This document shows, piece after piece, positions 1 through 11,061 of a stretch of DNA of 11,368 nucleotides. Where the stretch lies: positions 1 through 11,368 of IMG/VR virus record IMGVR_UViG_2547132269_000002. One strand, 5' to 3'. Position 1 is the stretch's first letter; each line of letters begins with the position of its first letter. Source of the stretch: a virus. Its lineage: Duplodnaviria; Heunggongvirae; Uroviricota; Caudoviricetes. The position numbers and the translations under genes are program-made. The notes under the pieces were generated by a model. It did not search any database. It saw only the letters and a program-made list of their open reading frames with translations, and had not been told where the DNA came from.

Positions 1-265
1 GCGATAATTTTACTCATCATCCTTCACATCAGGCCCTGTAGACAGAGTGGTGATTACTTCTGGAGTGGATTCAGATTAAACATCTCATTGCTAATGTTTG
101 AGGTTAAGCATCTGGCGCGCGGTAAGCGGTTGCGTTGAAATAAGAGCCAGTCCATTACAAATTTCATCAAGCGTTATTGGTAAGGGTGATAATTATGAGA
201 TACCTCTTCACTAAGAGTAATCTTAAGGGTAATGTGTAACCTCACTTTTTAATACGGAGGTTGTA

Positions 266-490
266 ATGTTAGAGAATTATTTCCCTTCAGGAATAGGTGC
301 TCAGCCTGTAACTCAAGCTCAAAAACAGAGGGTTATAGCTGTTCAAGCTGCCCTTGAATTAGTTAAGGCCTCACTTTCTTCTGCAGGTGGTCAGGCTACA
401 AGTGCAAAATTTGAACAGGAATTAAAAGCAGCTATTGGCTTAATTGAACCATTAGCCGATGCCATTCAGAAAGCAATCAGCAAAGAATAA
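266..490 (+). CDS. Small hypothetical protein (74 aa), AT-rich moron-like gene, predicted mostly helical, no signal peptide or TM segment
   Basis: ATG at 266 preceded by GGAGG at 256-260 (5-nt spacer); TAA stop at 488-490. Composition clearly more AT-rich than downstream phage genes. Followed ~105 nt downstream by an intrinsic terminator. Function not recognised. Confidence 0.6.
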   Translation: MLENYFPSGIGAQPVTQAQKQRVIAVQAALELVKASLSSAGGQATSAKFEQELKAAIGLIEPLADAIQKAISKE

Positions 491-595
491 ATAAACCACC
501 TGCATTTTGTTTTATTTCCCAACTAACGGGTGTAATAATCTTAATGTTTCCCGTGGATAGATAAGACAATAAGTATTCACCTTCAAGATATAAAC

Positions 596-622
596 GGGCC
601 TCGCTAATGCGAGGCTTTTTTA
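596..622 (+). terminator. Rho-independent terminator (stem gcctcgc / gcgaggc, loop taat, then TTTTTT)
   Basis: Perfect 7-bp inverted repeat at 598-604 and 609-615, immediately followed by a 6-T run at 616-621. Orientation fits termination of + strand transcription from the small gene at 266..490. Confidence 0.6.
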
Positions 623-656
623 CGCATTGTAAGCGTGCACCAAAGAGGGGATATAA

Positions 657-1007
657 ATGCCACCACGAACCCCAAAAGCCTGCCGTTTTCGCGGTTGCCG
701 CAATACCACTACAGATACGTCAGGCTATTGCGAAAGCCACAAAAGCGAGGGCTGGAAGCAATACAAGCCAGGACAATCCCGTCATCAGCGCGGTTATGGT
801 TCGAAGTGGGACAGTATCCGCGCGGGTGTCCTGAAGCGTGACAAAGGCCTGTGTCAGTTATGTCTGCGTGCTGGTGTGGTGCGTGAGGCGAAAACCGTTG
901 ACCACATCATCCCTAAAGCGCATGGCGGCACTGATGCCGACTGTAATCTGCAGAGTCTGTGCTGGCCGTGTCATAAGGCGAAGACGGCCCGTGAACGACT
1001 TAAGTGA
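657..1007 (+). CDS. HNH homing-type endonuclease, phage packaging-associated (116 aa)
   Basis: ATG at 657 with AGAGGGG upstream. Cys pairs CRFRGC and CQLC...CWPC (zinc-finger-like). HNH core DHIIPKAHGG...NLQSLCWPCHKAKT with His83 codon at 903-905. Sits directly upstream of the small and large terminase genes, as in HK97-like cos phages. Confidence 0.9.
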   Translation: MPPRTPKACRFRGCRNTTTDTSGYCESHKSEGWKQYKPGQSRHQRGYGSKWDSIRAGVLKRDKGLCQLCLRAGVVREAKTVDHIIPKAHGGTDADCNLQSLCWPCHKAKTARERLK

Positions 1008-1033
1008 TAATAATTCTCAACTGTCTGAGGGGA

Positions 1034-1093
1034 GGGGCGGGTCAAATCTCTGTGACCTGACGTCTTCCGGACTGCCCGCCCCATCGTTTTTTT
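1034..1093 (+). other. GC-rich inverted repeat (ggggcggg ... cccgcccc) with internal palindromes, followed by TTTTTTT; candidate terminator or cos/packaging-recognition region
   Basis: Arms at 1034-1041 and 1075-1082 are exact reverse complements separated by a 33-nt loop containing the palindromes gacgtc (1059-1064) and tccgga (1066-1071). A 7-T run at 1087-1093 lies 4 nt after the stem. Located in the HNH to TerS intergenic gap. Confidence 0.35.
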
Positions 1094-1132
1094 ATACCCG
1101 CGAAAAATGAAATTTAACCAGGAGTGCCGCAT

Positions 1133-1627
1133 ATGGCTGGAACGGCGGGGCGTTCCGGGCGTCGCCCCAAGCCAACGGCGCGCAAGGCGCTGGCCGGAAA
1201 CCCCGGAAAGCGAGCCCTGAACAAAGATGAACCCGTTTTTACGCCCATCAAAGGTGTTGAGCCACCGGAGTGGTTCGCTGAAGAAGAGCTCCCTCTCGCC
1301 ACGATCATGTGGCAACTGACAACCAAAGAACTCTGCGGTCAGGGCCTGCTGTGCGTGACTGACCTCGCAGTGCTTGAGCGGTGGTGCGTAGCCTATGAGT
1401 TCTGGCGACGTGCTGTGAAAAATATTGCCAGACAGGGCAACACCATCACCGGTGCAATGGGCGGCATGGTCAAAAATCCGGAGCTGACCGCCAAAAAAGA
1501 ACAGGAGTCCGAGATGAGCAGTACGGGGGCAATGCTCGGACTCGACCCCAGCAGCCGCCAGCGTCTGATTGGCCTGGCGGGGCAGAAGAAAGCCACTAAC
1601 CCGTTTCTGAAAATTATCGAATCATGA
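1133..1627 (+). CDS. Terminase small subunit, P27 family (about 164 aa from ATG 1133)
   Basis: ATG at 1133 preceded by AGGAG at 1120-1124; the in-frame GTG at 1124 used by the ORF track has no spacing for an RBS. Basic N-terminus GRSGRRPKP, then [15 protein letters not shown] and PPEW motifs typical of P27-type small terminases. Stop TGA at 1625-1627 overlaps the ATG of the next gene. Confidence 0.85.
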
Positions 1628-3357
1628 GCCGGAAATCTTACCCCAACGTAAATGCTGCCAATCAGTATGCCCGGGATGTCGTGCGCGGAAAGATTGTGGC
1701 CTGCCAGTTTGTGATTCAGGCCTGCCAGCGCCATCTTGATGACCTGATGGCGGAAAAAAGTAAGTCGTTTCGTTACCGCTTCGACAAGGACCTGGCTGAA
1801 CGGGCCGCCAAATTTATTCAGCTGTTGCCGCACACCAAGGGTGAGTGGGCATTCAAGAGGATGCCCATCACGCTGGAGCCGTGGCTGCTCTTTGTGATCT
1901 GCTGCGCGTTTGGCTGGGTCAATAAAGGCTCCCGGCTGCGCCGCTTCCGGGAGGTGTATACCGAAATCCCCCGTAAGAACGGCAAATCGGCAATCTCTGC
2001 CGGTGTCGCCCTGTATTGTTTTGCCTGTGATAACGAGTTCGGCGCGGAAGTGTATTCCGGTGCCACGACGGAGAAACAGGCATGGGAAGTCTTTCGTCCG
2101 GCAAGACTGATGTGTAAACGCACACCCATGCTGACGGAAGCGTTCGGGATTGAGGTTAACGCCTCAAACATGAATCGTCCGGAGGATGGCGCGCGGTTTG
2201 AACCGCTGATCGGTAACCCCGGTGATGGTTCATCACCCCACTGTGCGGTGGTGGATGAATATCACGAGCACGCCACCGATGCGCTTTACACCACGATGCT
2301 TACCGGGATGGGGGCGCGACGTCAGCCACTGATGTGGGCCATTACTACTGCCGGGTACAACATTGAGGGGCCGTGCTACGACAAGCGACGGGAAGTTATC
2401 GAGATGCTCAACGGGTCGGTACCCAACGATGAACTGTTCGGGATCATCTATACCGTTGACGAAGGCGATGACTGGACCGACCCGCAGGTGCTGGAAAAAG
2501 CTAACCCGAATATTGGCGTGTCGGTTTATCGCGAATTTTTGTTAAGTCAGCAGCAGCGTGCGAAAAATAACGCCCGTCTGGCAAACGTCTTTAAAACAAA
2601 ACACCTCAATATCTGGGTGTCGGCGCGTTCGGCGTATTTCAACCTGGTGAGCTGGCAGAGCTGCGAGGATAAATCACTGACCCTTGAGCAGTTCGAGGGG
2701 CAGCTGTGCATTCTGGCCTTTGACCTGGCGCGTAAGCTGGATATGAACAGCATGGCGCGACTTTATACCCGCGAGATTGACGGTAAAACGCATTACTACA
2801 GTGTGGCCCCGCGTTTCTGGGTACCGTATGACACGGTGTACAGCGTCGAGAAAAATGAAGATCGACGGACAGCCGAACGCTTTCAGAAATGGGTGGAAAT
2901 GGGCGTTCTGACCGTTACCGATGGTGCGGAGGTGGATTATCGCTACATCCTCGAGGAGGCCAAAGCGGCGAACAAAATCAGCCCGGTCAGTGAGTCACCC
3001 ATCGACCCCTTCGGGGCGACCGGGTTGTCACATGACCTTGCTGATGAAGACCTGAACCCCATCACTATCATTCAGAACTACACCAACATGTCCGACCCGA
3101 TGAAAGAGCTGGAAGCGGCAATTGAATCGGGGCGCTTTCATCATGATGGCAATTCCATCATGACCTGGTGTATCGGCAACGTGGTCGGCAAAACCATTCC
3201 GGGTAACGATGATGTGGTGAAGCCCGTCAAAGAGCAGGCGGAAAACAAAATCGATGGTGCAGTTGCGCTGATTATGGCGGTTGGCAGAGCCATGCTGTAC
3301 GAGAAAGAAGACACGCTGTCTGACCACATTGAGTCCTATGGGATCCGCTCGCTTTAA
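1624..3357 (+). CDS. Terminase large subunit (577 aa), ATPase plus nuclease
   Basis: Walker A-like P-loop IPRKNGKS at nt 1969-1989. Walker B-like VVDEYHE at nt 2248-2268. Length and position immediately after TerS, with ATGA overlap. Intact ORF. Confidence 0.95.
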
Positions 3358-3368
3358 CTGAGGTAATT

Positions 3369-3551
3369 ATGATCATGCTGATTCTCGCGCCTTTGGTGGG
3401 CGTGCTGGGGGCGCTTTTGCTGGCGTATGGTGCCTGGCTGATTTATCCCCCGGCGGGGTTTGTTGTTGCTGGGGCGTTGTGCCTGTTCTGGTCGTGGCTG
3501 GTGGCGCGATATCTCGACCGTACACAGTCGTCTGTCGGCGGAGGTAAATAG
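3369..3551 (+). CDS. Small hydrophobic protein (60 aa) with two predicted transmembrane helices, function unknown
   Basis: ATG at 3369 with GAGG 7 nt upstream. Two hydrophobic stretches ([26 protein letters not shown] and [16 protein letters not shown]) separated by PPAG. TAG stop at 3549-3551 overlaps the GTG start of the next ORF. Confidence 0.6.
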
Positions 3552-4909
3552 TGTTCTTTTCGGGATTATTTCAACGAAAAAGTGACGCACCGGTGACCAC
3601 GCCAGCAGAGCTGGCGGATGCTATCGGGTTGTCCTACGACACCTATACCGGAAAGCAGATCAGCAGCCAGCGGGCCATGCGACTGACGGCGGTTTTTTCC
3701 TGTGTCAGGGTGCTGGCGGAGTCGGTCGGGATGTTGCCCTGCAACCTGTATCACCTGAACGGCAGCCTGAAGCAGAGAGCCACTGGCGAACGTCTGCATA
3801 AGCTGATCTCCACGCATCCCAATGGCTATATGACGCCGCAGGAGTTCTGGGAGCTGGTGGTCACCTGTCTGTGCCTGCGGGGAAACTTTTACGCCTACAT
3901 TGAGCTGAAACGTCCGGCAGGTGGTGCGCAAAATAAACTGGCCACCGAGCATAAAGAAGCGTTTGTGGGCTTCCTGCGTAAAGGCCGTGAAGATGGTCTG
4001 CGCGATCTGGAGCGCAAGGCATTACAGGTGGGCACCGATGAAGACGGTGGCTATGCCGTGCCGGAAGCGCTGGATCGCAACATTCTGACCTTGCTGAAAG
4101 ATGAAGTGGTGATGCGCCAGGAAGCCGCGGTGATCACCGTTGGCGGTTCCGACTACAAAAAACTGGTGAATCTGGGCGGCACGGCTTCCGGATGGGGTGG
4201 CGAGACTGACGCGCGCTCCCAGACTGCCACCTCCAGACTGGGGCTGATTGAACCTTTCATGGGGGAAATCTACGGTAACCCGCAGGCCACCCAGAAAATG
4301 CTGGATGATGCCTTTTTCAACGTGGAGGCCTGGATCAACAGCGAGCTGGCAACCGAATTTGCCGAACAGGAAGAAATTGCCTTTACCACCGGCGATGGTA
4401 CCAAGAAGCCGAAAGGGTTCCTGGCGTATGAATCCACTGATGAAACCGATAAGGTCCGGGCGTTCGGCAAACTTCAGCATATTGTATCCGGCGACGCGAC
4501 TGCGGTGACCGCAGACGCCATTATCAAACTGATTTACACGCTGCGAAAGGCACACCGCACCGGCGCGAAGTTCATGATGAACAACAACAGCCTGTTTGCC
4601 ATCCGTTTGCTGAAAGACAGCGAGGGTAACTATCTGTGGCGTCCGGGGCTGGAACTGGGGCAGCCGTCCTCTCTGGCGGGTTACGGTATCGCTGAAAACG
4701 AACAGATGCCGGATATCGCCGCTGATGCGAAAGCCATTGCATTTGGTAACTTCAAACGGGGTTACACCATCGTTGACCGTATCGGCACCCGCATTCTGCG
4801 TGACCCGTACACCAATAAACCGTTTGTCGGTTTTTATACAACCAAGCGCACCGGCGGGATGCTGGTCGATTCGCAGGCCATCAAACTGCTGAAGATTGCT
4901 GCGGCGTAA
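3551..4909 (+). CDS. Chimeric ORF: portal protein N-terminal fragment (~125 aa) fused in frame to an HK97-fold major capsid protein (~325 aa); probable deletion product
   Basis: GTG start at 3551 with GGAGG at 3540-3544. Residues ~40-120 carry the portal N-terminal signature (AMRLTAVFSCVRVLAESVGMLP ... HPNGYMTPQEFWEL ... LRGNFYAYIE). From about nt 3910-3950 the sequence switches to capsid-type motifs (EAFVGFLRKG, GGYAVPE, TGDGTKKPKGFL, LRDPYTNKPFVGFYTTKRTGG, AIKLLKIAAA). No prohead protease or scaffold gene between them. Confidence 0.8.
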   Translation: MFFSGLFQRKSDAPVTTPAELADAIGLSYDTYTGKQISSQRAMRLTAVFSCVRVLAESVGMLPCNLYHLNGSLKQRATGERLHKLISTHPNGYMTPQEFWELVVTCLCLRGNFYAYIELKRPAGGAQNKLATEHKEAFVGFLRKGREDGLRDLERKALQVGTDEDGGYAVPEALDRNILTLLKDEVVMRQEAAVITVGGSDYKKLVNLGGTASGWGGETDARSQTATSRLGLIEPFMGEIYGNPQATQKMLDDAFFNVEAWINSELATEFAEQEEIAFTTGDGTKKPKGFLAYESTDETDKVRAFGKLQHIVSGDATAVTADAIIKLIYTLRKAHRTGAKFMMNNNSLFAIRLLKDSEGNYLWRPGLELGQPSSLAGYGIAENEQMPDIAADAKAIAFGNFKRGYTIVDRIGTRILRDPYTNKPFVGFYTTKRTGGMLVDSQAIKLLKIAAA

Positions 4910-4958: not shown

Positions 4959-5159
4959 ATGATCCTGAAACAAGATCTGAAATGGTCACCGGACGGTATG
5001 CGTGTTGAGGTCATTCGGGCCGGTGAGTATGACGACGGGGCGCTTCCTGCCCGGGTGCAGGAGATTGCACTTCAGGCCGGGTTAGCAGAGCGCGGAACCA
5101 GTGCAAAAAGCAGTAAAGCGGCAAAAGAGAAAAAAGCCACGACCAGTAAAGAGGGCTGA
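4959..5159 (+). CDS. Hypothetical small protein (66 aa) with Lys/Ser-rich C-terminal tail
   Basis: ATG at 4959, weak RBS. Sits between the capsid and head-tail connector genes. C-terminus SAKSSKAAKEKKATTSKEG. Stop 2 nt before the next gene start. No family recognised. Confidence 0.5.
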   Translation: MILKQDLKWSPDGMRVEVIRAGEYDDGALPARVQEIALQAGLAERGTSAKSSKAAKEKKATTSKEG

Positions 5160-5161
5160 GT

Positions 5162-5485
5162 ATGCTTCTGACAATGGAAGAGATTAAAGCCCAACTCCGG
5201 CTGGATGAGGATTTCGATGCTGATGACCGCCATCTGCAACTGCTGGCCTGTGCGGCGCAAAAGCGGACGGAAACGTATCTGAACCGGAAGCTCTATGCAC
5301 CGGATGAATCCATTCCGGACAGCGATCCGGACGGGCTGCACCTGCCGGATGATATTCGTCTGGGGATGCTGATGCTTATCAGCCATTTTTACGAAAACCG
5401 CTCGTCGGTTACGGAAGTGGAAAAACTCGACATGCCGCAGAGTTTTGGCTGGCTTGTCGGCCCGTACAGGTACTTTCCGCAATGA
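5162..5485 (+). CDS. Head-tail connector protein, gp6-like (107 aa)
   Basis: ATG at 5162 with AAGAGGG upstream. N-terminal pattern LTMEEIKAQLRLDEDFDADD...LQLLACAA resembles gp6-like connector/DNA-packaging proteins. Follows the capsid gene. ATGA overlap with the next gene. Confidence 0.75.
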   Translation: MLLTMEEIKAQLRLDEDFDADDRHLQLLACAAQKRTETYLNRKLYAPDESIPDSDPDGLHLPDDIRLGMLMLISHFYENRSSVTEVEKLDMPQSFGWLVGPYRYFPQ

Positions 5486-5892
5486 AAATTCGTCAGGCGC
5501 AGATCAGCGCAACCTACATTCTGCCGGACCCCGGTGAACTGAATAAACGCGTCCTGATCCGCCTGCGGGTGGATATGCCCGCGGATAACTTTGGCGTGGA
5601 GCCTCAATACCCGGTTACGTTCTGGACATGGGCGAAGGTTATCCAGACCAGTGCCACCACCTGGCAGGAAACCGCGCAGACCGGGGACGCCATCACCCAT
5701 TACATCACCATTCGTTACCGCCGGGGGATCACCGCTGATTATGAGGTGGTCTGTGATGACAGTGTGTACCGGGTGAAACGTCAGCGCGATCTGAACGGGG
5801 CGCGGCGCTTTCTGCTGCTGGAGTGTACGGAGCTGGGCGAATTTACGCAGAGTCACGGAGGCAGCAATGGCGACTCCCTTTTTTCACGTTGA
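5482..5892 (+). CDS. Head-tail joining (head closure / adaptor) protein (136 aa)
   Basis: Pattern RVLIRLRV ... FWTWAKVIQ ... AQTGDAITHYITIRYRRGI ... YRV ... LLECTE fits the phage head-tail joining family. Position after the gp6-like gene. Confidence 0.75.
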   Translation: MKIRQAQISATYILPDPGELNKRVLIRLRVDMPADNFGVEPQYPVTFWTWAKVIQTSATTWQETAQTGDAITHYITIRYRRGITADYEVVCDDSVYRVKRQRDLNGARRFLLLECTELGEFTQSHGGSNGDSLFSR

Positions 5893-6373
5893 TGTTCAGC
5901 AGCCCGCGGAGATGCGCTTTAACCGCGCCCGTGTCCGGCGGGCGTTTGTCACGATTGGTCAGCGTCATATGCGTGATGCCCGTCGGCTGGTGATGCGCCG
6001 TGCGCGGTCGGCACCGGGTGAAAACCCCGGTTATCAGACCGGACGCTTGGCTCGTTCGATTGGTTACATGGTGCCGGGAGCCAGTAAAAAGCGAGTCGGT
6101 TTTATGACACGCATTGCCCCTAACCAGCGCAACGGGAGGGGGAACCGGATGATCTCTGGTGACTTCTATCCGGCGTTTCTGTTTTTTGGTGTCCGGGGAG
6201 GAGCAAAACGTCGTCACAGTCATCATCGTGGTGCATCCGGTGGCAGCGGCTGGCGACTGGCTCCACGTAATAACTTCATGGTGGAAACGCTTGAAAAGAA
6301 CCGCAGCTGGACACGCTATTTTCTGGCGCGGGAATTACGTAAATCACTGAAGCCGGAGCGACGACGCAGATGA
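5867..6373 (+). CDS. Neck / tail-completion protein, HK97 gp10-like by pattern (168 aa), Arg-rich C-terminus
   Basis: ATG at 5867 with GGAGG at 5857-5861; overlaps the previous gene by 26 nt. Assignment rests on gene order and loose motif resemblance (GYQTGRLARSI, FYPAFLFFG). Confidence 0.5.
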   Translation: MATPFFHVDVQQPAEMRFNRARVRRAFVTIGQRHMRDARRLVMRRARSAPGENPGYQTGRLARSIGYMVPGASKKRVGFMTRIAPNQRNGRGNRMISGDFYPAFLFFGVRGGAKRRHSHHRGASGGSGWRLAPRNNFMVETLEKNRSWTRYFLARELRKSLKPERRRR

Positions 6374-6930
6374 AACTGACGCCTGTTATTGCTGCGCTGC
6401 GTGCCCGCTGCCCGTATTTTGAAAACCGGGTGGCAGGTGCGGCACAGTTCAAAAATCTGCCGGAGGTCGGAAAGCTGAAACTCCCGGCGGCGTATGTGGT
6501 ACCGGGTGATGACTCTCCTGGAGAAAACAAAAGCCAGACCGACTACTGGCAGGAGCTGAAAGAGGGCTTCTCCGTGGTTGTCATACTGAGTAACGGGCGT
6601 GATGAGCGCGGTCAGTTTGCCTCGTATGATGTGGTGGACGATGTCCGGCAGATGCTCTTTAAGGCCCTGCTGAGCTGGAACCCGGAAGCGTGCGGTAACC
6701 CGATTACCTATGACGGCGGCACGCTGCTGGATCTGAATCGTCATGAGCTGATTTATCAGTTCGATTTTTCGGTCATCAGCGAGCTGACCGAAGACGATAC
6801 CCGCCAGCAGGATGATCTGAACAGTCTGGATGAACTGCAAACGCTGGCGATTGATGTTGATTATCTCGAGCCCGGTAACGGGCCTGACGGCGATATCGAA
6901 CATCACACCGAAATAACCCTTCCTTCCTGA
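6370..6930 (+). CDS. Mu gp36/gp37-like tail-associated protein (186 aa) with acidic C-terminal region
   Basis: ATGA overlap with the upstream gene. Lies just upstream of the gp38-like gene and the tail sheath start, as in Mu-like tail modules. Family assignment is by position and loose resemblance. Confidence 0.5.
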   Translation: MKLTPVIAALRARCPYFENRVAGAAQFKNLPEVGKLKLPAAYVVPGDDSPGENKSQTDYWQELKEGFSVVVILSNGRDERGQFASYDVVDDVRQMLFKALLSWNPEACGNPITYDGGTLLDLNRHELIYQFDFSVISELTEDDTRQQDDLNSLDELQTLAIDVDYLEPGNGPDGDIEHHTEITLPS

Positions 6931-6938
6931 GGATCCTC

Positions 6939-7109
6939 ATGTTTGTCAAACCTGTTAAAGGGCGGTCAGTGCCTGACCCTGCCCGCGGCGACCTTTTGCC
7001 CGCCGAAGGGCGAAATGTTGACGAGAACAACTACTGGCTGCGCCGTGAAGCAGCGGGTGATATCCGGCGCGTGAATAAAAAGGTGAACACCGATGACGAT
7101 AAGCTTTAA
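6939..7109 (+). CDS. Small Mu gp38-like protein (56 aa, DUF2635-like)
   Basis: Not in the ORF track (below length cutoff); found by reading the sequence. ATG at 6939 with GAGGA at 6929-6933; TAA stop at 7107-7109. Protein MFVKPVKGRSVPDPARGDLLPAEGRNVDENNYWLRREAAGDIRRVNKKVNTDDDKL. Lies directly upstream of the sheath start codon. Confidence 0.55.
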   Translation: MFVKPVKGRSVPDPARGDLLPAEGRNVDENNYWLRREAAGDIRRVNKKVNTDDDKL

Positions 7110-7224
7110 CACCATTCCGTCGAATACGCTGGTTCCGTTGTTTTATGCGGAAATGGATAACCAGGCGGCGAATAAACACCCGCGCAGAGCACTGGCTGGC
7201 CTTCCGTCACGCATCCGGCACTGA
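7093..7224 (+). pseudogene. Tail sheath gene, N-terminal fragment only (43 codons, ~27 sheath-like then out-of-context tail)
   Basis: ATG at 7093 with AAGGTG upstream. Translation MTISFNTIPSNTLVPLFYAEMDN matches the conserved N-terminus of Mu-type sheath proteins, but a TGA stop follows at 7222-7224. The ~450-aa sheath body is absent. Confidence 0.6.
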
Positions 7225-7574
7225 ACAATGCACCGGCGGTGAAAAGCACGGTTGACCTGCCAACGTGGGAAGAACTGACTGACATTCGCGACACACTGAA
7301 TACGGCAATTGATAAGGAGTTGTCCCGTACAACCAGTGATGCGCTGTTTCTGGCGCTGCGCCGGGTGAAAGCAGATCTGAATGCGGATATCAACACGCGC
7401 CTTGAACAGTCTGCACGGATCATTCAGCGCACGCCGGATGAGGTTTTACCCGCGCTGGTGCTGGCGGCGACCTGGTTTGATAACGCGGCGCGTGACGGGG
7501 ACATTATCCGGCGTAATGCCATTACGCATCCCGGCTTTGTGCCGGTGATCCCTCTGAAGGTGCCAGTGCAATGA
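7176..7574 (+). pseudogene. 3' remnant of the gene upstream of the baseplate hub (probably Mu gp43/N-like DNA circularisation protein); no ATG start or RBS
   Basis: Frame opens after the TAA at 7173-7175 and runs to the TGA at 7572-7574, which overlaps the ATG of the hub gene (caATGAac). First possible start is a GTG at 7239 with no RBS. 133 open codons against an expected ~400-500 aa for this gene. Confidence 0.5.
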
Positions 7575-8650
7575 ACGATAACGTCACGCTACGGGTAAAT
7601 GGCCGGGAGTGGAATGGCTGGACATCGGTGCGCATCGGTGCCGGTGTTGAACGACTGGCGCGGGATTTCAGTGTGGAGATCACTCGCCAGTGGCCGGGAG
7701 ATGAGGGTATCACCACGCTTCAGCCGCGCATTAAAAACGGTTCAAAAGTGGAAGTGCTGATTGGTGATGAGCTGGTGATCACCGGCTGGGTGGAGGCGAC
7801 TCCCGTTCGTTACGATGCCCGTTCGGTCAGCACCGGTATTGCCGGACGTAGTCTGACGGCTGACCTGATTGACTGTGCAGCCGAACCGACACAGTTTAAC
7901 GGACGCTCGCTGGTGCAGATTGCGCAGGCGCTTGCTGCGCCTTTCGGCATTGAGGTGGTGAACAGCGGTGCGCCGTCGGGTGTTATTCCTGATGTTCAGC
8001 CTGATCACGGTGAAACGGTGATTGAGGTAATCAACAAAATACTCGGTCAGCAGCAGGCGCTGGCTTACGACGACCCGTACGGCAGGCTGGTGATTGGCGG
8101 TATTGGCTCAACGCGGGCACATACCGCGCTGGTACTTGGGGAAAACATCCTTTCCTGTGATACGGAGAAGAGTATCCGGGAGCGGTTTTCTGTTTACCAG
8201 GTGGCGGGGCAGCGTGCCGGAAACGACGATGATTTCGGTGAGGCCACCACCACCGCGCTGCGGGCCCGCACAGAGGACGCATTTATTGCCCGTTACCGTC
8301 CGATGTATATCAGGCAGACAGGGCAGCCCACGGGGGCAGGCTGTATTGCGCGTGCTGACTTTGAAGCCCGACAACGGGCGGCGCGGACGGATGAAACCAC
8401 CTATGTGGTGCAGGGCTGGCGACAGGGTAACGGTACGCTGTGGCAGCCCAACCAGCGGGTGATTGTCTTCGATCCGGTCTGTGGTTTCGACAATACCGAA
8501 CTGCTTGTCTCGGAAGTCACGTTTACTCAGGACCAGAACGGCACCCTGACGGAAATCCGTGTCGGCCCGCCTGATGCTTATCTGCCTGAACCCGAAGCCC
8601 CCGGCGCGCGGGAAAAGAAAAAAGCCAGAGTACAGGAGGACCCGTTCTGA
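7571..8650 (+). CDS. Baseplate hub protein, Mu gpP (gp44)-like (359 aa)
   Basis: ATG at 7571 overlapping the upstream stop. Size and position match; N-terminal pattern LRVNGREWNGWTSVRIGAGVERLARDFSVEIT. Followed by the gp45-like and gp46-like genes in canonical order. Confidence 0.8.
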   Translation: MNDNVTLRVNGREWNGWTSVRIGAGVERLARDFSVEITRQWPGDEGITTLQPRIKNGSKVEVLIGDELVITGWVEATPVRYDARSVSTGIAGRSLTADLIDCAAEPTQFNGRSLVQIAQALAAPFGIEVVNSGAPSGVIPDVQPDHGETVIEVINKILGQQQALAYDDPYGRLVIGGIGSTRAHTALVLGENILSCDTEKSIRERFSVYQVAGQRAGNDDDFGEATTTALRARTEDAFIARYRPMYIRQTGQPTGAGCIARADFEARQRAARTDETTYVVQGWRQGNGTLWQPNQRVIVFDPVCGFDNTELLVSEVTFTQDQNGTLTEIRVGPPDAYLPEPEAPGAREKKKARVQEDPF

Positions 8651-9198
8651 TGAGGACGATTGAAGCCATGCAGCGACAACTTCTCGGCCTGATTGGGCGG
8701 GCAGTGGTGAAAAGCATCAGTGCCGCCACGAAATGTCAGACCGTGGATGTGTCCCTGATTGCCGGTGAATCCAAAGCCGGGGTTGAACATCTTGAACCCT
8801 ACGGTTTTACCGCAAGGGCAAACAGCGGTGCGGAAGCGGTGGTGTTGTTTCCGGATGGCGACCGTTCTCATGCGGTGGTTGTTACGGTGTCGGACCGGCG
8901 CTACCGCCTGAAAGGGCTGCAGACGGGTGAGGTGGCTGTCTATGACGATCAGGGGCAGTCCGTGACGCTGACCCGGGAGGGGATCGTGGTGGACGGTGCA
9001 GGTAAAACGATCACGTTTCACAATGCGCCTAAGGCACGTTTTGAAATGGACCTGGAGGTGACCGGACAGGTGAAAGACCTGTGCGACTCCGGCGGCACCG
9101 CCATGTCAGCGATGCGGCTTGCCTATAACGGGCATCGTCACAGAGAGAACGGTCAGGGCAGTAACACCGACAAACCTGATAAAGCGATGGAGGCATGA
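8650..9198 (+). CDS. Baseplate spike / assembly protein V, Mu gp45-like (182 aa)
   Basis: TGATG overlap with the hub gene. Pattern GLIGRAVV ... GESKAGVEHLEPYGFTA ... GEVAVYDDQGQSVTL typical of gpV-like spike proteins. Canonical position. Confidence 0.8.
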   Translation: MRTIEAMQRQLLGLIGRAVVKSISAATKCQTVDVSLIAGESKAGVEHLEPYGFTARANSGAEAVVLFPDGDRSHAVVVTVSDRRYRLKGLQTGEVAVYDDQGQSVTLTREGIVVDGAGKTITFHNAPKARFEMDLEVTGQVKDLCDSGGTAMSAMRLAYNGHRHRENGQGSNTDKPDKAMEA

Positions 9199-9623
9199 TG
9201 GAAGTGTGGCTGACGGTGAACGGTAAATGCACCTGCGCCAGCGCACCGCTGGATCCGCTGACCCGCGCCGTGGTGATTTCTCTGTTTACCTGGCGGCGGG
9301 CGGAGCCTGATGACAATGCCGACGTCCCGATGGGATGGTGGGGGGATACCTGGCCTGCGGTACAGAATGACCGTTACGGTTCCCGACTGTGGCTGCTTCA
9401 ACGCAGCAAACTGACCAATCAACTGGTGCAGACGGTAAGGGGGTATATCCGCGAATGCCTGCAATGGATGATTGATGACGGCGTGGTGTCCCGTATTGAT
9501 CTGGATATCCGCCGCACCGGGATTAATGAACTGGGTAACAGTATCACTCTCTGGCGTCGTGACGGACCGGTAATGATTTCTTTTGATGATCTGTGGAGTG
9601 CGATAACGCATGGCGGACAGTGA
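9195..9623 (+). CDS. Mu gp46-like baseplate protein (142 aa)
   Basis: ATGA overlap with the gp45-like gene. Size and position between the spike and J-like genes. Confidence 0.75.
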
Positions 9624-11061
9624 ATTTCAGCGCCCGACGCTGGCAGAAAATATCAGTATGCTCCGTAACGATTTATTCGCCAGGCTGGACGTCAGCGACA
9701 CGCTCCGGCGCATGGATGAAGACGTGCGGGCAAAGGTGTATGCGGCGGCGCTGCATACGGTTTACGGGTACATCGATTATCTGGCAATGAACATGCTGCC
9801 TGACCTGTGCGATGAGTCCTGGCTGGCGCGACATGCTGCGATGAAACGGTGTCCGCGCAAGGGGGCCACGGCTGCCAGCGGGTATATGCGCTGGGAAGGT
9901 GTCAGCGATGGCCTGAAGGTGACCGCCGGGAGTGTTATTCAGCGCGATGACCTGGTTCAGTACACGGCAACTGCCGATGCAACCAGCTCCGGTGGTGTCC
10001 TGCGCGTGCCGATCGCCTGCTCAAGTGCAGGCGCGGTCGGTAACGCTGACGACGGTACGTCATTAATCCTGGTCACGCCGGTTAATGGTCTGCCGTCTTC
10101 CGGCGTGGCAGATACCCTGACAGGTGGATTTGATACTGAAGAGCTGGAAACGTGGCGCGCCCGCGTCATTGAGCGGTATTACTGGACGCCTCAGGGCGGA
10201 GCTGACGGGGACTATGTCGTCTGGGCTAAAGAAGTGCCCGGCATTACCCGCGCATGGACATACCGTCACTGGATGGGAACGGGAACTGTCGGTGTGATGA
10301 TTGCCAGCAGTGACCTGATTAATCCCATTCCGGAAGAATCAACGGAAACGGCAGCAAGACAACATATCGGGCCACTGGCCCCGGTGGCAGGCTCTGATTT
10401 GTATGTGTTCAGGCCGGTGGCGCATAAAGTGGATTTTCATATCCGCGTGACGCCGGACACACCGGAAATACGGGCTGCCATTACCGCGGAGTTGCGTTCG
10501 TTCCTGCTGCGTGATGGTTATCCGCAGGGAGAACTGAAGGTATCGCGTATCAGTGAGGCGATTTCCGGTGCGGCACCGTCATTAACCCGTGTTCATCAGC
10601 GTGCGGATGCCCTGATGCGGGAGCTGGATCCGCGCACCACCACTGAACTGATAAACCGCTGGGAGCGTCTGTGCGGTCTGCCGGATGAATGTATTCCGGC
10701 GGGAACGCAGACCCTTCGCCAGCGTCAGCAACGGCTGGATGCGAAGGTTAACCTGGCGGGCGGCATCAACGAGGATTTTTATCTTGCACAGCTTGCTGCC
10801 CTGGGCAGACCAGATGCCACCATCACGCGATACGACAAAAGCACGTTCACCTGCTCATCGGCCTGTACTGACGCGGTGAATGCGCCAGAATGGCGGTATT
10901 GCTGGCAGGTCAACATGCCAACCACCACCAACACCACCTGGATGACATGTGGCGATCCCTGTGATTCCGCACTGCGTATCTGGGGTGACACCGTTGTCGA
11001 GTGTGTGCTTAACAAACTCTGCCCGTCGCATACCTACGTAATTTTTAAATATCCGGAGTAA
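9610..11061 (+). CDS. Baseplate J-like protein (Mu gp47-like, ~320 aa) continuous with a gp48 / P2 gpI-like tail protein domain (~160 aa) in one 483-aa ORF
   Basis: ATG at 9610; single uninterrupted frame to TAA at 11059-11061. The N-terminal ~320 aa look J-like. From about nt 10560-10620 ([24 protein letters not shown] ...) the sequence resembles the N-terminal region of gp48/DUF2313-type proteins, which are normally a separate downstream gene. Confidence 0.75.

Follow-up and report, generated by a model that had tools for sequence, protein, structure and literature searches.

Full-length HNH, TerS and TerL genes in a truncated SfV/e14-type prophage of Escherichia albertii

The stretch of DNA analysed here (the window), 11,368 bp long, makes up an entire contig of a short-read assembly of Escherichia albertii and carries the late genes of a prophage with broken head and tail genes. 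The genes for an HNH endonuclease and for both terminase subunits are full length, and the question is why they are whole in such a damaged element. The earlier note on this DNA proposed that the packaging enzymes had been selectively retained, as happens in domesticated elements and satellite-like ones, and as an alternative that the deletions are simply recent. The alternative is the favoured one. The element is very probably an ordinary, recently truncated prophage of the SfV/SfII/e14 family, with packaging genes that are whole by chance and recency and are not being preserved.

Family, gene content and packaging module

Phages SfII, SfI, SfIV, and SfV are 96.6–97.0% identical with the window in nt sequence across 72–91% of its length and have the same gene order, and intact e14-family prophages of E. 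coli are 98% identical. Alignment of positions 1–3899 to E. coli NH-21 gave 61 substitutions and no gaps. The late region is colinear with those of SfV, SfI, SfII, and SfIV, and in it a head and packaging module of HK97 type is joined to a baseplate and tail module of Mu type (gp44–48); the Pfam domains Phage_portal, Phage_capsid, Phage_connect_1, Phage_HCP, GpP, Mu_Gp45, GP46, Baseplate_J, and Mu_Gp48 were recognized in it. The set of morphogenesis genes of a functional phage is incomplete, the deleted parts spanning from portal to the gp48 N-terminus. Judging by these comparisons, the window is the late-gene region of a common temperate phage of the SfV/e14 type, which is now carried, as a prophage no longer functional, by a small E. 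albertii clade. Predicted features are listed in Table 1.

Table 1. Features annotated on the 11,368-bp window.
Feature	Position	Strand	Evidence and remarks
Conserved phage ORF, 74 aa, hypothetical in relatives	266..490	+	phrog_5901, E=8e-29; between lysis cassette and HNH
Terminator-like hairpin GCCTCGC-TAAT-GCGAGGC, then TTTTTT, upstream of HNH	598..622	+	Read from sequence
Terminase-associated HNH endonuclease, 116 aa, HK97 gp74 / GVE2 HNHE type	657..1007	+	PF01844, whole model (1-47/47), E=5e-15; phrog_144, E=2e-44
cos region	1034..1082	.	10-nt cohesive end TGCCCGCCCC at 1073-1082, between HNH and TerS
TerS, small terminase subunit, P27 family, 164 aa	1133..1627	+	PF05119, E=2e-21; phrog_83, E=5e-60
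TerL, large terminase subunit, 577 aa	1624..3357	+	PF03354, PF20441
ymfR-like small membrane protein, 60 aa	3369..3551	+	phrog_502, E=2.5e-28; annotated ymfR in relatives and K-12 e14
Portal(1-116)::major capsid(66-401) in-frame fusion	3551..4909	+	D1 junction 3899/3900
Six intact head-completion/neck genes: 66-aa ORF, head-tail connector, head closure, tail-completion/Neck1, tail terminator, DUF2635	4959..7109	+	PF05135, PF05521, PF23840, PF10948; phrog_1020, phrog_879; gapless vs relatives
Tail-sheath stub, 43 aa	7093..7224	+	D2 junction 7174/7175
DNA-circularization / baseplate-hub C-terminal remnant, 111 codons	7239..7574	+	phrog_17109 94-204/204; phrog_184 300-408/411; mapped to intact relative L001
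Intact Mu-type baseplate genes gpP/gp44, gp45, gp46	7571..9623	+	PF21683, PF22255, PF21929, PF06890, PF07409
Baseplate J/gp47::gp48(YmfQ) fusion, 483 aa	9610..11061	+	PF04865 and PF10076 in one ORF
Tail-fibre gene (stfP-like), 5' part, cut by contig end	11065..11368	+	Relatives' annotation

The small ORF upstream of the HNH gene sits in a stretch with G+C content of 40%, and no match to it was found in Pfam or PADLOC. The stem of the terminator-like hairpin was also listed on the minus strand by the scan; the T run on the plus strand was read directly. No promoter was found by a scan of positions 1–1700, and neither structured RNAs nor tRNA genes were found when the window was scanned with Rfam at gathering thresholds and with a tRNA search.

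The HNH protein is matched over its full length by the GVE2 HNH protein (PDB 5H0M, E=4e-13) and is identical in the closed E. albertii genome. Its core at 900–990 reads DH...N...CxxCH, with C66xxC69, D82-H83, N97, and C101xxC104-H105 in the translation, so the beta-beta-alpha-metal core and two CxxC pairs of the HK97 gp74 type adjoin cos, terS, and terL. The gene is the last one before cos, as described for orf-54 of SfIV, and is the final gene of the packaged genome. The cohesive end is identical to that of SfI, the termini of which, a 10-nt gap TGCCCGCCCC, were determined experimentally from virion DNA (PMC3636060). An 8-bp inverted repeat, GGGGCGGG (1034–1041) and CCCGCCCC (1075–1082), overlaps the cohesive-end sequence. 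Starts of the phage records map to 1008 (SfII), 1066 (SfIV and SfV), and 1084 (SfI) of the window. The cos region is identical in the intact relatives L001 and L011, while L012 differs at position 1049 only, which belongs to neither the repeat arms nor the cohesive end. By its sequence, the element has the cos packaging of the SfV/e14 family, with the family cohesive end between HNH and TerS.

The start of TerS is likely the ATG at 1133, which gives the same 164 aa as in annotated relatives and has AGGAG 8 nt upstream; a GTG at 1124 is less likely. Exactly this TerS protein is present on more than 1000 contigs across Enterobacteriaceae. As a search of PDB revealed no sequence relative of TerS, and the TerS of HK97 (gp1) gave no Pfam match, the two are equivalent by position and function only. 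TerL was aligned with HK97 TerL (PDB 6Z6D) along most of its length (phmmer E=1e-23). Its Walker A motif is PRKNGKS (1969–1989), and Walker B with the catalytic Glu is VVDEYHE (2248–2268).

HNH, cos, TerS, and TerL together make up the standard HNH-assisted cos-packaging module of the SfV/SfII/e14 family, the mechanism of which is modelled on HK97 and SfI. As in HK97, TerS would recognize DNA near cos, and TerL with the HNH protein would cut it, in SfI with 10-nt cohesive ends as a result; TerL would then pump the DNA into a procapsid.

Deletions, their order and their age

Lesions in the window consist of three deletions only, D1 of 1731 bp, D2 of 5006 bp, and D3 of 182 bp, and no other indel is present. 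D1, of 577 codons, extends from within the portal gene through the prohead protease gene into that for the capsid protein, which is left without its N-terminus; in the resulting fusion, PF04860 is matched only at 2–75 of its 321 positions and PF05065 over its whole length. D2 is out of frame; lost with it are the sheath, tube, and tape measure, the assembly proteins, and three quarters of the DNA-circularization protein from its N-terminus. Both the D1 and the D2 junction are without microhomology. D3 arose between 16-bp direct repeats, of which the copy at 10557–10572 is retained, and removes the C-terminus of J and the N-terminus of gp48. A J::gp48 fusion of equal length is coded in S. flexneri and E. 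coli, in proteins differing by 8–10 aa.

HNH, TerS, and TerL are each exactly as long as the homologue in intact prophages. Full-length genes with no frameshift or stop are likewise those for connector, head closure, neck, tail terminator, DUF2635, gpP, gp45, and gp46. Outside the three deletions, the packaging genes are no more intact than any other gene, and hence nothing was selectively retained. On the anatomy, the earlier note was largely correct: the gene identities and the call of a defective prophage agree with the Pfam matches and the deletions, the three packaging ORFs are full length, the positions given for the HNH core and both Walker motifs are exact, and head and tail fusions and truncations are located at 3551–4909, 7093–7224, 7239–7574, and 9610–11061. 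Its description of the prophage as otherwise decayed fits the three deletions and is overstated for all the remaining genes.

In the closed E. albertii genome CP030787.2, D2 and D3 are present and the portal, protease, and capsid genes are intact; since both tail deletions occur there with whole head genes, the head deletion D1 was the last. Three derived substitutions map to the branch on which D1 arose. The D1 fusion, absent from CP030787.2, was found also in the independent assemblies GCA_027566395.1 and SRR3574322, and its protein is represented by two alleles on about 5 contigs. The ORF specific to the D2 junction is on only 5 contigs in a collection of 15 billion proteins, the closed E. 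albertii chromosome included. Queries of 80 nt over the D1 and D2 junctions had no full-length match in 5,426 complete E. coli genomes, and the exact 24-mer of the D1 junction had 0 matches in GTDB species representatives and 0 in IMG/VR. The query over the D3 junction gave two-piece matches only, among the matches listed, in the complete E. coli genomes. The haplotypes differ by 13–19 substitutions in 11.4 kb. A recent origin of the form with all three deletions, which is limited to a few isolates of E. albertii, is therefore favoured by the sequences at hand.

The deletions could in principle be an artefact of assembly, as the window is a complete short-read contig and related prophages are multi-copy. 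However, the D1 and D2 junctions lack any shared sequence, the 16 bp repeated at D3 are shorter than assembler k-mers, the same junctions occur in independent assemblies, and D2 and D3 are on a closed chromosome. The artefact is refuted by these observations, and its probability is negligible.

The tail shaft was thus lost first, with the 5-kb deletion, in a lineage that also carries the 182-bp repeat-mediated deletion; the 1.7-kb deletion later deprived a sublineage of its protease gene, of most of its portal gene, and of the 5' end of its capsid gene. After the 5-kb and 1.7-kb losses, neither heads nor tails can be made.

Substitutions, the TerL change Q88L and rival explanations

Substitutions were counted since divergence of the three haplotypes (n=25). 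On branches after the tail deletions, nonsynonymous to synonymous changes were 2N:2S in the packaging genes and 12N:9S in the other genes (Fisher p=1), and density was 1.6/kb in the packaging genes, with four substitutions in 2.6 kb, vs. 2.7/kb elsewhere (p=0.49). Both N:S ratios are raised over the long-term baseline: post-deletion 14N:11S stand against 57N:145S in the long term (p=0.01), and post-deletion dN/dS of 0.30–0.43 against 0.06–0.23. For the packaging genes, long-term dN/dS (0.06–0.08) is no different from that between intact relatives (0.04–0.08). Selection looks relaxed across the whole element on these counts, although they may be compatible with moderate purifying selection on the packaging genes, as three haplotypes with four packaging substitutions give low power; the probability that four random substitutions in the packaging genes yield 0 stops is 0.85. 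A comparison of terminase with head and tail dN/dS had been suggested as a check. On post-deletion branches of the three haplotypes available, packaging and other genes did not differ in N:S, and a naive version of the comparison would be misleading, because dN/dS of terminases is lower than that of structural genes even among intact phages.

Of 60 alignment columns with conservation of 90% or more, TerL keeps 59, and the sole exception is codon 88 (1885–1887, CTG), which codes for Leu. Gln is at this position in 97 of 102 diverse homologues, in three intact relatives, and in the closed E. albertii relative. The position is occupied by A, M, or F or is a gap in 4 of the 102 homologues, and by this alignment Gln is not absolutely required. 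In the 5,426 complete E. coli genomes, the Leu88 allele had 0 matches and the Gln allele was found in 1,137 places. Position 88 aligns with Q33 of HK97, which is assigned to the adenosine pocket (Fung et al. 2022, PMC9410871); on adenine-binding motifs of terminases, the literature found otherwise comprised T4 reviews only. Q88L is derived on the stem common to the window and the other D1 haplotype, L006, i.e., on the same branch as D1, and TerL of L006 additionally has D40N at a conserved column. From the alignment with HK97, Q88L probably weakens or abolishes the ATPase of TerL. The ORF of TerL is thus full length with readable motifs, as had been claimed, but it does not have all the conserved ATPase and nuclease residues of an HK97 gp74-type module.

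Domestication would mean that head and tail genes decay and that purifying selection maintains a working HNH–TerS–TerL set because it serves the host in some role of its own. Three full-length ORFs with intact Walker A, Walker B, and HNH core speak for it, and the nominally lower density of substitutions in the packaging genes points the same way; neither this difference nor that in N:S is significant, however, and both amino acid changes in TerL after the tail deletions, that at the adenosine-pocket Gln included, are at columns at least 90% conserved. The equal intactness of other undeleted genes and the presence of the form in few isolates also argue against it, and GTA- or tailocin-like elements would have long-term vertical conservation under purifying selection, whereas here about 5 contigs and a shift of N:S toward nonsynonymous changes were found. 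In the complete E. coli genomes, the packaging block is retained as often (1092 of 1423 genomes) as a baseplate block of equal length (1085 of 1398); e14 of K-12 did not keep its HNH, TerS, and TerL N-terminus; and terminase and portal genes are preferentially lost from incomplete prophages in published surveys (PMC7744054). Domestication is accordingly very improbable, and the selective retention proposed in the earlier note is not supported. A satellite-like element, which would keep cos and its own terminase and have the remnant or adjacent host DNA packaged with procapsids and tails supplied by an SfV-like helper, either resident in the same cell or superinfecting it, is scarcely any more credible. 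The cos end and its flanks do match those of functional phages, SfV-like prophages often occur several times in one genome (in E. coli at up to 6 places), and the contig breaks off on either side in a way that suggests repeats common to other prophages. Yet the element is a plain colinear deletion derivative of complete phages, with neck and baseplate genes needless for a satellite and not the compact autonomous island of a PICI, cf-PICI, or cos-SaPI; its flanks, judged from the closed relative, contain IS elements and no adjoining integrase, excisionase, repressor, or replication module. Besides, packaging by cos phages requires a pair of cos sites spaced by about a genome length, of which a single one is visible here; with the cos of its helper, an element would have no need of its own terminase; and TerL carries Q88L.

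A further explanation is that TerL was actively disabled and is not drifting: when capsids are missing, cutting of a chromosomal cos would be harmful, so disabling mutations would be favoured. Both nonsynonymous changes of TerL fall in the 60 of 577 columns with at least 90% conservation, for which the chance is about 0.011, and Q88L is on the branch of the portal–capsid deletion. These are, however, two events only, examined with a test chosen after the data were seen; HNH and TerS are unchanged; and the late operon is probably silent, given that the closed relative lacks the early region, so that selection would have little to act on. Active disabling is unlikely, then, if somewhat less so than the two preceding explanations. 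If true, a cos-cutting terminase without capsids would be costly to the host, and terminase inactivation would be a selected step in the taming of a prophage. Under the preferred explanation of recent truncation, the packaging genes are full length because the deletions spared them by chance and very little time has elapsed. The importance of this beyond annotation is small, but it carries a lesson: full-length ORFs beside deleted neighbours are no proof of selection when relatives differ by few substitutions. The nested deletions in E. albertii, with a missense change of the ATP-pocket Gln, make a small, datable snapshot of early prophage decay.

Comparison with known systems

Phage satellites have their own integrase, regulation, and replication in a characteristic compact layout, and cos satellites of the SaPIbov5 type carry cos and use HNH, TerS, and TerL of the helper. 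SaPIbov5-type cos islands and capsid-forming PICIs resemble the present element in being incomplete elements with helper-compatible cos or packaging genes. The present element differs in that it arose by deletion from a full phage, with which it is still colinear, has neck and baseplate genes left over, and, in the closed relative, has no satellite modules nearby. The flanks there consist of IS elements, Q, lysis genes, and integrase fragments only, and three reverse-strand genes between Q and the holin gene had no match in PADLOC and Pfam scans. The loss of the early region is seen in the closed relative only, as the window comprises the whole of its contig.

The module of HK97 (gp74 HNH, gp1 TerS, gp2 TerL) is similar in that its TerL has the same two Pfam domains and its HNH gene adjoins cos and the terminase genes; gp74 stimulates cleavage of cos by TerL (PMC9410871). 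The relation is distant. TerS belongs here to the P27 family, whereas gp1 had no Pfam match, and the adenosine-pocket Gln is replaced by Leu.

SfII, SfI, SfIV, and SfV, which have lambdoid regulation, an HK97-type head, and a Mu-type tail, are arranged like the window in the order HNH, cos, TerS, TerL, head, neck, baseplate, and tail fibre. The window differs from these phages of Shigella flexneri in the absence of 6.9 kb of head and tail genes, in its host, and in Q88L of TerL. K-12 e14 is the archetype of a decayed member of the same family and has the same ymfR, portal (beeE), baseplate J (jayE), ymfQ, and stfP genes; it is likewise a remnant riddled with deletions, followed by the Pin invertase and a defence gene. 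The losses of e14 are its own, as it lacks HNH, TerS, the N-terminus of TerL, and all from mid-portal to mid-J, and its TerL is a truncated chimera. It kept int, xis, and the repressor, whereas the element of E. albertii kept the packaging module and lost other blocks, so the pattern of loss looks haphazard and not directed by function. In this respect, the E. albertii prophage is one more deletion derivative of the well-studied family of SfV and e14.

Identity of the element and its deletions

The window (11,368 bases) is the complete short-read contig Logan ERR200287_311, and bases 908-12260 of contig JAQAMS010000051.1 (GCA_027566395.1) are identical to it. Its proteins were assigned to Escherichia albertii in exact-sequence look-ups. 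In the Shigella flexneri serotype-converting phages SfII, SfI, SfIV, and SfV, the late regions are colinear with the window (96.6-97.0% identity). Prophages of this family in E. coli, hundreds in number, are colinear with it as well, and the top match among them is 98.0% identical. RefSeq gene names in the E. coli relatives (ymfR, ymfQ, and stfP) are those of genes in the K-12 cryptic prophage e14. According to Pfam and PHROGs, gene order is as expected: HNH endonuclease, P27-family TerS, TerL, and ymfR at the packaging end; HK97-type portal, capsid, connector, and head-closure proteins, a neck protein, and a tail terminator; then Mu-type gp44, gp45, gp46, gp47, and gp48, followed by a tail fibre. 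The window is a recently truncated prophage of the SfV/e14 family, a known kind of object. A separate record of 37,667 bp from E. coli CX04 (NZ_CP081716.1, match H30), listed among plasmids, spans the entire region of the window with 95.7% identity and has every gene; it is probably an excised circular genome of an SfV-like phage assembled as a plasmid.

The fusions and truncations described in the earlier note are real, and all result from three deletions relative to intact relatives (D1 in the head, D2 and D3 in the tail and baseplate). Every gene outside D1-D3 is full length, so the element is not otherwise decayed and the intactness of the packaging genes is not special. Assembly artefacts were rejected as the source of the deletions, as the junctions share 0, 0, and 16 bp and recur in independent assemblies. 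The predicted D1 product is a 452-aa protein with the N-terminus of the portal and an almost complete capsid fold, labelled at NCBI merely as phage major capsid protein. The 483-aa J::gp48 fusion created by D3 (P0005, P0011, and P0012) was also found among S. flexneri and E. coli proteins, 8-10 residues off the E. albertii version; D3 is therefore either recurrent at the 16-bp repeat or an old allele spreading by recombination.

Features of the packaging module and deletions, in window positions
Feature	Position	Description
HNH	657-1007	Full length; same length in intact relatives
Inverted repeat	1034-1041 / 1075-1082	Perfect, 8 bp, GGGGCGGG / CCCGCCCC
SfI cohesive end	1073-1082	TGCCCGCCCC
TerS	Likeliest start ATG 1133	AGGAG 8 nt upstream; full length; same length in intact relatives
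TerL	1624-3357	Full length; same length in intact relatives
D1	3899/3900	1731 bp (577 codons), in frame, without microhomology; protease lost, portal 1-116 joined to capsid from residue 66
D2	7174/7175	5006 bp, out of frame, without microhomology; sheath, tube, assembly proteins, tape measure, and most of DNA-circularization gene lost
D3	10557-10572 (retained repeat copy)	182 bp between 16-bp direct repeats; baseplate J fused to gp48/YmfQ

The junctions of D1 and D2 are both missing from 5,426 complete E. coli genomes, and that of D1 also from GTDB species representatives and IMG/VR. Among about 15 billion collected proteins, two alleles of the D1 fusion protein were found on about five contigs, each from E. 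albertii, and the 43-aa ORF across D2 on five contigs, one of them the closed E. albertii chromosome CP030787.2. On this chromosome, D2 and D3 share their junctions with the window, whereas the portal, protease, and capsid genes are intact; hence, tail loss came first, and head loss followed within a sublineage. The rarity of this form and the few substitutions among haplotypes support recent deletions, to which the earlier note had referred as the alternative. In the closed genome, where the capsid gene is intact although the tail shaft is gone, this gene carries one synonymous change and three nonsynonymous ones, G>D, R>L, and P>L (window-equivalent positions 4179, 4557, and 4821), which suggests that loss of the tail was immediately followed by relaxed selection on head genes.

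Substitutions and retention of the packaging genes

The leading idea of the earlier note was selective retention of HNH, TerS, and TerL. Three E. albertii haplotypes (the window, its nearest haplotype L006, and the closed genome) differ at 25 sites, all cleanly polarised by three intact outgroups, on the tree (closed,(window,L006)). The three packaging genes have two nonsynonymous and two synonymous substitutions (dN/dS 0.30, 1.6 substitutions per kb), and all other genes have 12 and 9, respectively (dN/dS 0.43, 2.7 per kb). The dN/dS comparison proposed as a check thus separates the two sets neither in N:S (Fisher p=1.0) nor in density (p=0.49), and selective retention is unsupported, also with regard to the conserved sites hit in TerL. 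With four substitutions, the probability of no stop codon is 0.85; intact packaging ORFs are the neutral expectation.

Compared with intact relatives, long-term dN/dS is 0.06-0.08 in packaging, 0.15-0.23 in head and neck, and 0.10-0.14 in baseplate genes. Pairs of intact relatives also differ in this way (0.04-0.08 in terminase vs. 0.11-0.17 in head and connector genes), so the low terminase value comes with this class of genes and does not point to domestication. Taken over the entire element, N:S shifted towards nonsynonymous changes after the deletions (14:11 vs. 57:145 in the long term, p=0.01), which indicates relaxed selection everywhere in it; the packaging genes alone (2:2 vs. 9:34, p=0.23) are too small a sample to reveal a shift.

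Among complete E. coli genomes with any match to the respective block, at least 80% of the 2.7-kb packaging block was covered in 1,092 of 1,423, and at least 80% of an equal-length baseplate block in 1,085 of 1,398. The packaging block is not preferentially retained across E. coli. In a survey of 1,384 prophages, terminase and portal genes were preferentially lost from incomplete ones (PMC7744054).

The cos site and the terminase

The HNH, TerS, and TerL genes are full length, as the earlier note claimed; their lengths equal those in intact relatives, and the 3,899-base alignment holding them has 61 substitutions and no gaps. The motif coordinates were exact as well (HNH core within 900-990, PRKNGKS encoded at 1969-1989, and VVDEYHE at 2248-2268). 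The window HNH matches the terminase-associated GVE2 HNH endonuclease (PDB 5H0M) over its whole length, and TerL matches HK97 TerL (6Z6D). Missed in the earlier note was the 10-nt cohesive end of SfI, known from virion DNA (Sun et al., PMC3636060), which lies between HNH and TerS, so that the module is HNH-cos-TerS-TerL. One arm of the inverted repeat overlaps it. Intact relatives L001 and L011 have the same bases throughout 1034-1082; L012 differs only at 1049, outside the repeat arms and cohesive end. Phage records begin at window positions 1008 (SfII), 1066 (SfIV/SfV), and 1084 (SfI).

TerL is intact in length and motifs but not strictly wild type. When aligned with 102 full-length representatives (38-52% identity to the window TerL), it keeps 59 of 60 columns conserved at 90% or more; the exception is residue 88, Leu in the window vs. 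Gln in 97 of the 102 homologues. As the closed E. albertii genome and the three intact relatives all have Gln, Q88L is derived, and it is on the same branch as D1. Against the complete E. coli genomes, a 51-nt probe centred on codon 88 gave no match when it carried Leu; carrying the ancestral Gln allele, it matched 1,137 places in 1,019 of them. In profile alignment, residue 88 is opposite Q33 of HK97 TerL (LDPFQ/LEPWQ), the conserved glutamine in the pocket that binds adenosine (Fung et al., PMC9410871). Judged from the alignments, Q88L would probably damage the terminase, though A, M, or F is found there in a few homologues. The sole other TerL amino-acid change in the clade, D40N in L006, is also in a column at least 90% conserved. 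With selective maintenance, the opposite would be expected.

The intact cos would suit a satellite-like element whose helper provides capsids and tails, but this is unlikely: as a colinear deletion derivative, the element still has leftover genes for neck and baseplate; it has a single visible cos and no visible excision or replication module, and its terminase is putatively damaged. A further reading, also unlikely, is that selection in this lineage favoured terminase inactivation, since both TerL changes are at conserved sites (chance ~0.01); these are, however, two events only, and the test was picked after the data were seen.

Surroundings, cargo, and known systems

In CP030787.2, IS elements border the prophage remnant, with IS3-family transposase genes on either side (L007 1-923 and L004 19758-20927; both loci are from this chromosome), and an IS1 lies within the right arm. 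Q and lysis genes are present. No integrase, repressor, or replication initiator was found on the left; it seems, therefore, that IS activity removed or relocated the early region. Q and the holin gene are separated by three minus-strand genes (204, 114, and 249 aa; L007 5963-7690), a position typical of cargo or morons; these genes have no match in Pfam or PADLOC. The window itself has a conserved ORF for a 74-aa hypothetical protein (phrog_5901) at 266-490, in a stretch with 40% G+C vs. about 56% in the rest; a terminator-like hairpin and T run come next (598-622). Both lie between the lysis cassette and HNH, a moron-like layout.

Downstream of the Pin invertase, CP030787.2 encodes a GIY-YIG protein (L004 14341-15066; PADLOC defence model PD-T4-3, E=1e-128). 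Such a defence cargo gene could keep the remnant in the genome; e14 has mcrA in its place. In K-12 e14, HNH and TerS are lost, and TerL remains only as the chimeric pseudogene ymfN/aaaE. The HNH-assisted cos terminase module of the window is the standard one of the SfV/e14 family and is arranged like that of HK97, in which the HNH protein gp74 stimulates cleavage of cos by TerL (PMC9410871).
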